Assembly (NCBI GenBank): GCA_964016885.1
Contig: OZ024742.1
Span: forward strand, 203,298,001 to 203,362,000
DNA: 64,000 nt
Direction of reading: 5' to 3'
DNA from: Eledone cirrhosa
Lineage: Eukaryota
Shown: piece after piece, positions 151-2,029 of the stretch
Layout: every line of letters begins with the position of its first letter
Position numbering within the stretch: position 1 is the first letter of the stretch
Notes under the pieces: model-generated
The model's database searches: none
Told to the model about the DNA's origin: nothing
Seen by the model: the letters and a program-made list of their open reading frames with translations, nothing else
Position numbers and translations under genes: made by a program

Positions 151-761
151 AATATATATATATATATATATATATATATATATATATATATATATATATA
201 TATATATATATGTATATATATATATATATAAGTTGAAAAAAATGAAAACGAAATTTCATTTCTCACTCTTAGTATGGCACTTACTTAAATGTAAGTATGT
301 ATGTATGTATACGTACATACATATATGTATACAGACGTACAGTAGCATGCATATATATATATATATATATATATATATATATATATATATATATATATAT
401 ATATATATATATATATATATACACACATGCATACAGGTACACATACATATATGCACGCATCAGTTTAGCCAACGTTTATTATAACGCCGGCCGCTTTGTT
501 CGTTTGTTTGTCAACAAAGCGAACAGCCTGAATTTATGCCATACGGTGTTAAGGCAACCACGTCACCTTTTTGTTCAACACTGACACAGGAACGATGTAC
601 TAGTTTCAAGCTTGTTAGCTATCATTCATTTTTTTCAACTTATCGTTTTCGGTATGCCTGACCGATTTAACTCACTCAATATGCAAATTAGGCTGCTCAG
701 CCGTTAATTTTCATAAGGAAAGTATATACTTTCGAACGTTTAACTATCTGGCAGATGGGTA

Positions 762-806
762 AACGGTGCTGATGATAGCTAACAAGCTTGAAACTAGTAC
801 ATCGTT
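762..806 (+). ncRNA. Minimal type I hammerhead ribozyme motif
   Basis: aacggtg-CTGATGA-t agct aaca agct t-GAAA-ctag-TA-catcgtt. Helix I aacggtg/catcgtt has one G-U pair; helix III is the palindrome actagt; predicted cleavage after GUA at 799. Confidence 0.85.
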
Positions 807-1259
807 CCTGTGTCAGTGTTGAACAAAAAGGTGACGTGGTTGCCTTAACACCGTATGGCATAAATTCAGGCTGTTCGCTTTGTTGACAAACAAACGAACA
901 AAGCGGCCGGCGTTATAATAAACGTCGGCTAAACTGATGCGTGCATATATGTATGTGTACCTGTATGCATATGTGTGTATATATATATATATATATATAT
1001 ATATATATATATATATATGCATGCTACTGTACGTCTGTATACATATATGTATGTACGTATACATACATACATACTTACATTTAAGTAAGTGCCATACTAA
1101 GAGTGAGAAATGAAATTTCGTTTTCATTTTTTTCAACTTATCGTTTTCGGTATGCCTGACCGATTTAACTCACTCAATATGCAAATTAGGCTGCTAAGCC
1201 GTTAATTTTCATAAGGAAAGTATATACTTTCGAACGTTCAACTATCTGGCAGATGGGTA

Positions 1260-1304
1260 AACGGTGCTGATGATAGCTAACAAGCTTGAAACTAGTACAT
1301 CGTT
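1260..1304 (+). ncRNA. Minimal type I hammerhead ribozyme motif (second tandem copy)
   Basis: Identical to 762-806, one unit (498 bp) downstream. Confidence 0.85.
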
Positions 1305-2029
1305 CCTGTGTCAGTGTTGAACAAAAAGGTGACGTGGTTGCCTTAACACCGTATGGCATAAATTCAGGCTGTTCGCTTTGTTGACAAACAAACGAACAAA
1401 GCGGCCGGCGTTATAATAAACGTCGGCTAAACTGATGCGTGCATATATGTATGTGTACCTGTATGCATATGTGTGTATATATATATATATATATATATAT
1501 ATATATATATATATATATATATGCATGCTACTGTACGTCTGTATACATATATGTATGTACGTATACATACATACATACTTACATATATATATATATATAT
1601 ATATATATATATATATATATATATATATATATATATATATATATATATATATATATATATATAATTTATATATATATATGTATATATATATATATATATA
1701 TATATATATATATATATATATATATATATATATATATATTATTATATATATATATATATATATATATATATATTGATATATATATATGTATATATATGTA
1801 TATATATATATATATATATAGAAGTGGTTACACAACAGTTAGTTCACCATACTGAGAACAATTGTTTCACCTTAGCGGATCCTCTGCTCGGAATGGGCAT
1901 GGTTATAGGAACAAGAAGGATAACCGTACGAACGTGCATGCGCAGAAACCCGGTCACTTCACGCAGGCAATACTAGACTGCGTGCGAGAGGTGTAAGGGA
2001 GATAACTGCGAGAGTCCGAAAAGTCCGAA

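Follow-up and report, generated by a model that had tools for sequence, protein, structure and literature searches.

A high-copy non-coding repeat with a predicted hammerhead ribozyme and a Penelope-like insertion signature in Eledone cirrhosa

Introduction

Metazoan non-LTR retrozymes have been described as tandem non-coding units that carry one type I hammerhead each, with low GC content, thousands of copies and a weak palindromic helix III (PMC7229834; bioRxiv 10.64898/2026.07.22.740005). Circular RNAs are documented for the mussel representatives (PMC7229834), and a link between retrozymes and Penelope-like elements has already been argued (bioRxiv 10.64898/2026.07.22.740005). According to PMC8557442, Penelope-like elements insert into (TA)n targets and possess an inverted arm together with a tail on one side; the presence of the tail on one arm only is reported in PMC3846280 as well. 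In the anole Poseidon element PAc, the protein cuts and extends both strands of its target, two internal reverse transcription starts define the tail, and a dimer is predicted (PMC11167929). The analysis presented here touches on how Penelope-like elements form their inverted arms and tails, and on the use of the same machinery and a circular template by retrozymes.

We analyzed a 64,000-nt stretch of the E. cirrhosa genome (hereafter the window; contig OZ024742.1, positions 203,298,001 to 203,362,000), which contains a tandem repeat with a 498-bp unit. The unit shares with metazoan non-LTR retrozymes the sequence traits given at the outset, including a GC content of 35%, and its length of about 500 nt lies above the 170–400 nt of PMC7229834 but inside the 51–972 bp of bioRxiv 10.64898/2026.07.22.740005. 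Unlike them, it carries an internal (TA)n tract and targets (TA)n, and its cleavage is a prediction from sequence; two-armed insertions with ends at fixed sites, here called A and B, are not among the traits given for the class in the available text of these two sources. With Penelope-like elements of the Hydra (PMC8557442) and Neptune clades, it has in common (TA)n targets, partial tandems, an inverted 5′-truncated arm, a one-sided tail and a hammerhead motif, whereas it has no ORF, a tail of about 58 nt against their 30–40 bp, and no sequence homology to the autonomous copies that we sampled. PAc resembles it in having two adjacent internal starts, with a start in a stem-loop, and an AT-rich target of which both strands are cut and extended; in contrast, the sites of our unit are used one per arm in vivo while PAc shows no strand difference in vitro, and our arm ends share 2–4 nt with the TA target while PAc starts without homology (PMC11167929). 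Chlamys non-autonomous elements such as MRC1 are likewise non-autonomous Penelope-like elements inserted as head-to-tail multicopies, but most Chlamys elements are described without canonical hammerheads and the non-autonomous ones resemble their helpers at the 3′ end (PMC8557442), a likeness that we did not find for our unit. Plant LTR retrozymes, defined by a type III hammerhead in LTRs, a PBS, a PPT and a 4-bp TSD, differ from this type I, tandem, (TA)n-flanked unit. The literature covered, which lay mostly outside subscription journals, Repbase and supplements, showed us neither the 498-bp family nor any retrozymes from octopuses, nor a rule of one site per arm backed by counts.

Results

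Judged from its sequence, the repeat in the window is a single two-armed insertion of a high-copy non-coding repeat with a predicted hammerhead. Runs of (TA)n listed at 153–230 and 1584–1820 form its left and right target flanks. TRF reports a 498-bp period with 1.9 copies at 625–1584; this forward arm (+ strand) ends at site A, after which (TA)n follows. The inverted arm (228–625, − strand; 1092–1489 of locus L001) starts at unit position 136, inside the ribozyme core, and hence holds no complete ribozyme; it ends at site B, again followed by (TA)n, and overlaps the forward arm by 1 nt. A sequence-only reading of this DNA had described it as an inverted partial copy preceding the tandem; it is the second arm of one and the same insertion.

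Site A (1077–1083, +) lies in the loop of a predicted 7-bp hairpin and is the site used by the forward arm at 1584, whereas site B (1136–1141, +) is used by the inverted arm at 228. The tail between them (1084–1141, +) measures about 58 nt. The two forward copies mismatch at 698/1196 and 741/1239 and by 6 nt of internal (TA)n. Leaving the microsatellite aside, a single base distinguishes the inverted arm from them. The internal tract, (TA)20 at 978–1017 in copy 1 and (TA)23 at 1476–1521 in copy 2, is the main source of unit-length variation. Near-identity of the copies had been taken as a sign of recent insertion; the copies are young, but their likeness dates the insertion only loosely, because a single template predicts it and later DNA duplication can maintain it. 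At 905–930, we also observed a hairpin with a TTATAATAAA/TTATTATAAA loop region that recurs in all three retrozyme families described below with differing stems, possibly a protein-binding motif.

The unit proved non-coding, as proposed earlier: read as a circle, it has 4–12 stops per turn in every one of the six frames, and its longest Met-ORF is 104 aa of translated microsatellite, at a GC content of 0.35. The predicted 498-nt monomer RNA (800–1297, +) would be highly structured, with stem I holding its ends together; its computed folding energy is −180.5 kcal/mol, with a z-score of −11.4 that is inflated by the TA hairpin. Rfam miRNA matches on this hairpin scored below cut-off and were rejected as composition artefacts. 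The unit is present in contigs of three of four sequencing runs, whose kind is unspecified and which are uninformative on RNA ends.

Two type I hammerhead motifs occupy 755–817 and 1253–1315 (+), with identical cores starting at 769 (to 799) and 1267, one 498-bp unit apart as the sequence-only reading had stated, and with predicted cuts after 799 and 1297. Each combines a stem I of 7 bp, CUGAUGA, a helix II of 4 bp preceded by a U.U pair, GAAA and the palindrome ACUAGU. The core CUGANGA...GAAA...UH and three helices, open at helix I, are thus present, whereas all three families have U.U in place of the G10.1-C11.1 pair expected at the base of helix II. The axolotl HHR_Amex2 also has U.U at this position, a variant that cleaves weakly (PMC7229834). 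In a single copy, helix III amounts to 1 bp and a tetraloop, and its closure is computed at +5.4 kcal/mol as compared to −4.8 kcal/mol for the inter-copy duplex; the palindrome is therefore expected to favour pairing between copies, in line with the earlier suggestion and with the description of such an architecture as working through dimers (PMC4209133). Partition-function folding, a method that cannot represent a crossed dimer, returned no inter-copy helix III.

Rfam gave no match at gathering score anywhere in the window; Hammerhead_HH9 aligned at 755–817 and 1253–1315 with 18.5 bits against a cut-off of 52 (E 0.13). This score far below cut-off, the single-copy helix III and the U.U start of helix II are the weak features of the ribozyme. 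A chance origin of the motif is ruled out by the occurrence of its exact 31-nt core at 10,718 places in the 3.0-Gb genome, compared with 0 for the reversed control. In nine sequences from three related families, which represent few and non-independent events, 10 of 16 ribozyme pairs have changes in both partners, and the proportion of cells that pair is 97.9%, compared with 34–48% in slid controls. Among 197 copies, from a sampling that favoured intact cores, 187 retain an intact core.

The genome-wide count bears out the dispersal of the family that had been claimed. A looser core pattern yields 34,997 matches, which comprise the 498-bp family and sister families of about 420 and 312 bp. Over 95 intervals, the spacing between ribozymes ranges from 464 to 572 nt (median 506), so that the monomer length of 498 nt proposed earlier holds at the window locus and varies between loci. 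The ~420-bp family is 72% identical to the unit and includes the diverged relative pointed out earlier at 31749–32170. This relative is real, with 70–83% identity to the unit, but at least 39 other copies match it at 98% identity, which makes it a member of a separate family and not an old decayed copy of the 498-bp family; it is a two-armed insertion without core (31745–32170, no strand assigned), its left arm ending at B and its right arm at A. Just to its right lies a long near-perfect inverted repeat (32195–32452). The likeness of the 312-bp family to the unit is confined to the surroundings of the core. This very young family has a related hammerhead with helix III ACGCGU, and was seen inside or beside 498-bp family copies (L039 1811–3812, L047 5100–7500 and L032 3574–4020).

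Further CUGANGA...GAAA matches occur in the window at 26646 (+), 20085 (−), 13399 (+), 21670 (+), 27196 (−), 40717 (−), 54223 (−) and 28425 (−). Only the match at 26646, also found in L077, passed a stem and palindrome filter; the remaining ones may have decayed or be due to chance. Hammerhead-like motifs in which helix III is a TA run (GAAA, then UAUAUAUA) were noted at L033 8486, L053 1456/3680/3720, L074 5282, L096 2450 and L034 595, and apparently represent further families.

Arm ends were mapped in 63 loci, namely 12 of a first set of 30 (the other 18 being duplicates or replaced by longer stretches), 11 of a second set of 13 (L038 and L043 were left out) and 40 of a further set. These are 63 among thousands of loci, biased to close matches and intact cores, and scoring an end as A or B required an adjoining TA run. 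Site A accounts for 43 of the 115 arm ends and site B for 55, so that two fixed sites about 60 nt apart together take 98 of them; internal TA accounts for 9 ends, a locus edge for 2 and other positions for 6. Forty-three inserts are two-armed, and where both ends fall at A or B (29 inserts) the pairing is AB in 28, BB in one and AA in none, for 50% AB expected (p = 5e-8). An additional two-armed insert completed by L038 is also AB. Examined by eye, the ~420-bp family shows AB in 7 of 7 classifiable inserts (20 loci, with three further two-armed loci unclassifiable), and the 312-bp family, in which the sites are some 36–40 nt apart, shows AB in 9 of 9 (two unclassifiable), one more nested insert being AB as well. 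The idea that insertion boundaries coincide with the ribozyme cut failed: no 3′ arm end lies within 30 nt of the predicted cut, and 5′ ends within 8 nt of it number 2 of 115 against 3.9 expected, hence no enrichment.

The two arms of an insert usually carry the same sequence variant: sequences diverge by a median of 0.4% inside an arm, 0.3% from one arm of an insert to the other and 2.3% from locus to locus. Where the arms overlap (24 loci; seven have no overlap), the partner falls within the nearest 12% of all arms in 19 cases. The five exceptions comprise the window locus, which shows 1 difference and a common variant, two loci whose overlap is short, one in which separate insertions are mixed, and the sole BB locus, whose arms belong to two different variants (20/300 differences) and likely stem from two events. 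Junctions between arms (n = 43) show an overlap in 24 cases (1–4 nt in 19), are blunt in 3 and contain filler in 16. Arms exceed 520 nt in 60 of 115 cases, under a sampling that favours long arms. Long arrays (L034, L037/38, L041 and L047) contain private variants that recur every 2–4 units on one arm only.

Just upstream of the insertion (window 1–148 and L043 5376–8229) lies a two-armed Penelope-like element with YVDD and CX4CIIC, which we read as Neptune-like and whose arms differ by the one-sided tail. Downstream, at 1822–4263 (+), is a frameshifted Hydra-type Penelope-like element, separate from the unit, with its own hammerhead (4163), an inverted arm (1822–2024) and a tail beyond 4230. 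Its assignment rests on the DKT and CxCX5C motifs, which PMC8557442 gives as defining the Hydra clade, since Pfam matched no family to the Hydra-type ORFs. In its family, both arms are present in 4 of 12 loci, one ending before the tail and the other running into it; the one-sided tail pattern is thus also found in the adjacent Hydra-type and Neptune-like elements. A 3′ fragment of a second Hydra-type family follows at 4291–6250; it contains a hammerhead at 6150 and, ahead of the endonuclease, an insert rich in Asn. Another fragment occurs at 11002–11827, and the copies of this family in L073 and L060 are 97–99% identical in protein, which indicates a young family. At the window locus, four elements that target TA lie one after the other.

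Neither neighbour is the source of the unit as a terminal repeat. The DNA likeness to the Hydra-type element does not go beyond words expected by chance, and this element possesses arms and a hammerhead of its own; the Neptune-like element shares no sequence with the unit and also has its own arms. An ORF with reverse transcriptase and GIY-YIG endonuclease, as expected of an autonomous Penelope-like element, is absent from the unit, the ORF at 1977–3995 belonging to the separate Hydra-type element. The protein of that element has 27,414 reverse transcriptase candidates in the genome, and in the few Penelope-like families sampled among them we found no autonomous element sharing sequence with the unit. 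A genome search for a helper with the ribozyme subtype of the unit gave one match, unrelated-looking. U.U at helix II occurs in two of the three Hydra-type hammerheads seen, a weak hint at a Hydra-type helper; both a Hydra-type and a Neptune-type helper are possible.

Elsewhere in the window, we noted broken frames for LINE-type reverse transcriptase and restriction-like endonuclease at 37528–43618, 45442–46560 and 49565–52273. A 220-bp tandem at 17499–18020 (2.4 copies, 82% matches) is presumably a SINE repeat. No obvious host gene was found among window ORFs of at least 150 aa.

Discussion

With consecutive tandem units that each contain a complete type I hammerhead sequence, no coding capacity, low GC content and dispersal in high copy number, the repeat fits the sequence definition of a non-LTR retrozyme, a class already known. 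It also has the anatomy of a non-autonomous Penelope-like element, namely a partial tandem with an inverted 5′-truncated arm (43 two-armed inserts in 63 loci) and a tail at one end only, as expected from two start sites (28 of 29 AB). The sequence-only reading had named neither this class nor the Penelope-like insertion signature. We consider it very probable that both apply together, i.e. a retrozyme that is mobilized by Penelope-like machinery. The fuller explanation that we judge best, a two-armed non-LTR retrozyme insertion mobilized in trans by a Penelope-like reverse transcriptase-endonuclease through twin priming, is probable as a whole; taken by itself, priming by both target ends is rather likely, and we lean slightly towards a template that is circular rather than uncleaved and linear.

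According to this explanation, two hammerheads of a tandem transcript would fold together by pairing of their palindromes in helix III, with cuts after 799 and 1297, and the released monomer would be ligated into a circle, as has been demonstrated for coral, mussel and axolotl retrozymes. A Penelope-like protein would cleave a (TA)n tract on both strands, one free end priming cDNA synthesis at A and the other at B on the same RNA, helped by 2–4 nt of TA homology. Synthesis would continue beyond the cut site through at least one turn and terminate at random positions, after which microhomology or filler would join the two cDNA ends. Target-primed reverse transcription from both cut ends is suggested by the fact that the arms point outwards, each ending in (TA)n at a fixed position of the RNA. 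Long arrays likely also lengthen later through DNA duplication; their length is no proof of rolling-circle copying, because the periodic variants confined to one arm point to such duplication.

A cleaved linear monomer is not the main template, because arms copied from it could reach no more than about 281 or 342 nt and would have their 5′ ends at the cut, and more than half of the arms mapped, in a sample that favours long ones, are longer than 520 nt. The template would therefore be a circle or an uncleaved multimer. That the same element and machinery use an uncleaved linear multimer, the hammerhead being a passenger or a trimmer of read-through transcripts and no circle being involved, is a possibility that we take seriously while holding it doubtful. 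It agrees with arms that cross the cut site and with the lack of 3′ ends there, with the ability of arrays to grow at the DNA level, and with in vitro observations that eight of nine Xenopus retrozyme dimers stayed uncleaved (bioRxiv 10.64898/2026.07.22.740005) and that RNA left unprocessed is the main substrate of the anole element, whose ribozyme mutants still insert (PMC11167929). The same work indicates that the anole hammerhead needs protein and is dispensable for insertion in vitro. A mere passenger, on the other hand, sits poorly with the compensatory changes by which core and helices are preserved in families otherwise sharing little sequence, and with the intact core of most copies, even in a sample that favoured such cores. 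Genomic data alone cannot separate the two templates, and ribozyme conservation together with the documented mussel circles (PMC7229834) modestly favours a circle.

The inverted arm could instead arise by fold-back or self-priming on one cDNA or antisense RNA, without priming from both ends, as in the model described for rotifer Penelope elements together with palindromic junctions (PMC3846280). This model likewise predicts a single variant on both arms, and there is a mild excess of close junctions, with 5 of 43 joining positions at most 10 nt apart (1.8 expected, p = 0.03) and 9 of 43 at most 25 nt apart. The near-palindromic junctions would fit fold-back in a minority of inserts, but in 34 of 43 cases the positions joined are unrelated, being separated by more than 25 nt and up to 248 nt, and the use of A on one arm and B on the other is left unexplained. 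We regard fold-back as an improbable general account.

Still less probable, in our opinion, is that an autonomous Penelope-like element left the unit behind as its terminal repeat (pLTR), which then spread locally as a minisatellite via unequal crossing-over. Xenopus retrozymes have been related to pLTRs, with local amplification proposed (bioRxiv 10.64898/2026.07.22.740005), and the periodic private variants of the long arrays are compatible with such spread. Yet in no sampled locus (63 of thousands) is the unit joined to a coding region, nearby reverse transcriptase and endonuclease matches being separated by (TA)n and having their own ends; the unit has no protein similarity to the sampled Penelope-like ORFs; and dispersed two-armed inserts with fresh TA-flanked ends indicate repeated new insertion. 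An assembly artefact or chance motif in microsatellite-rich DNA, which the long (TA)n runs bounding the region and the weak Rfam support might bring to mind, can practically be dismissed given the exact core count against its control, copies that differ at two sites and in TA length, and an architecture that recurs at dozens of loci with locus-specific variants.

Returning to twin priming of a retrozyme RNA by Penelope-like machinery, we tentatively put forward a symmetric version, in which a dimeric reverse transcriptase-endonuclease would grip one ribozyme-made circle at the tail hairpin, and each half of the dimer would copy this circle from a fixed start of its own into one of the two ends of a cut (TA)n tract. 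The anole assay, in which the start site did not differ between strands, counts against strand-specific use of A and B (PMC11167929). If the symmetric version is true, the tens of thousands of retrozyme insertions in this genome would be an in vivo record accounting jointly for inverted arms, one-sided tails and tandem arrays in all Penelope-like elements.

The repeat itself is ordinary within its known class, and its value lies mainly in the insertion signature. The 498-bp family offers thousands of young insertions under a strict rule by which one arm takes A and its partner B, each insertion having a single variant. It would thereby tie retrozymes to Penelope-type integration by mechanism and not by mere co-occurrence, and yields a precise prediction for in vitro work.
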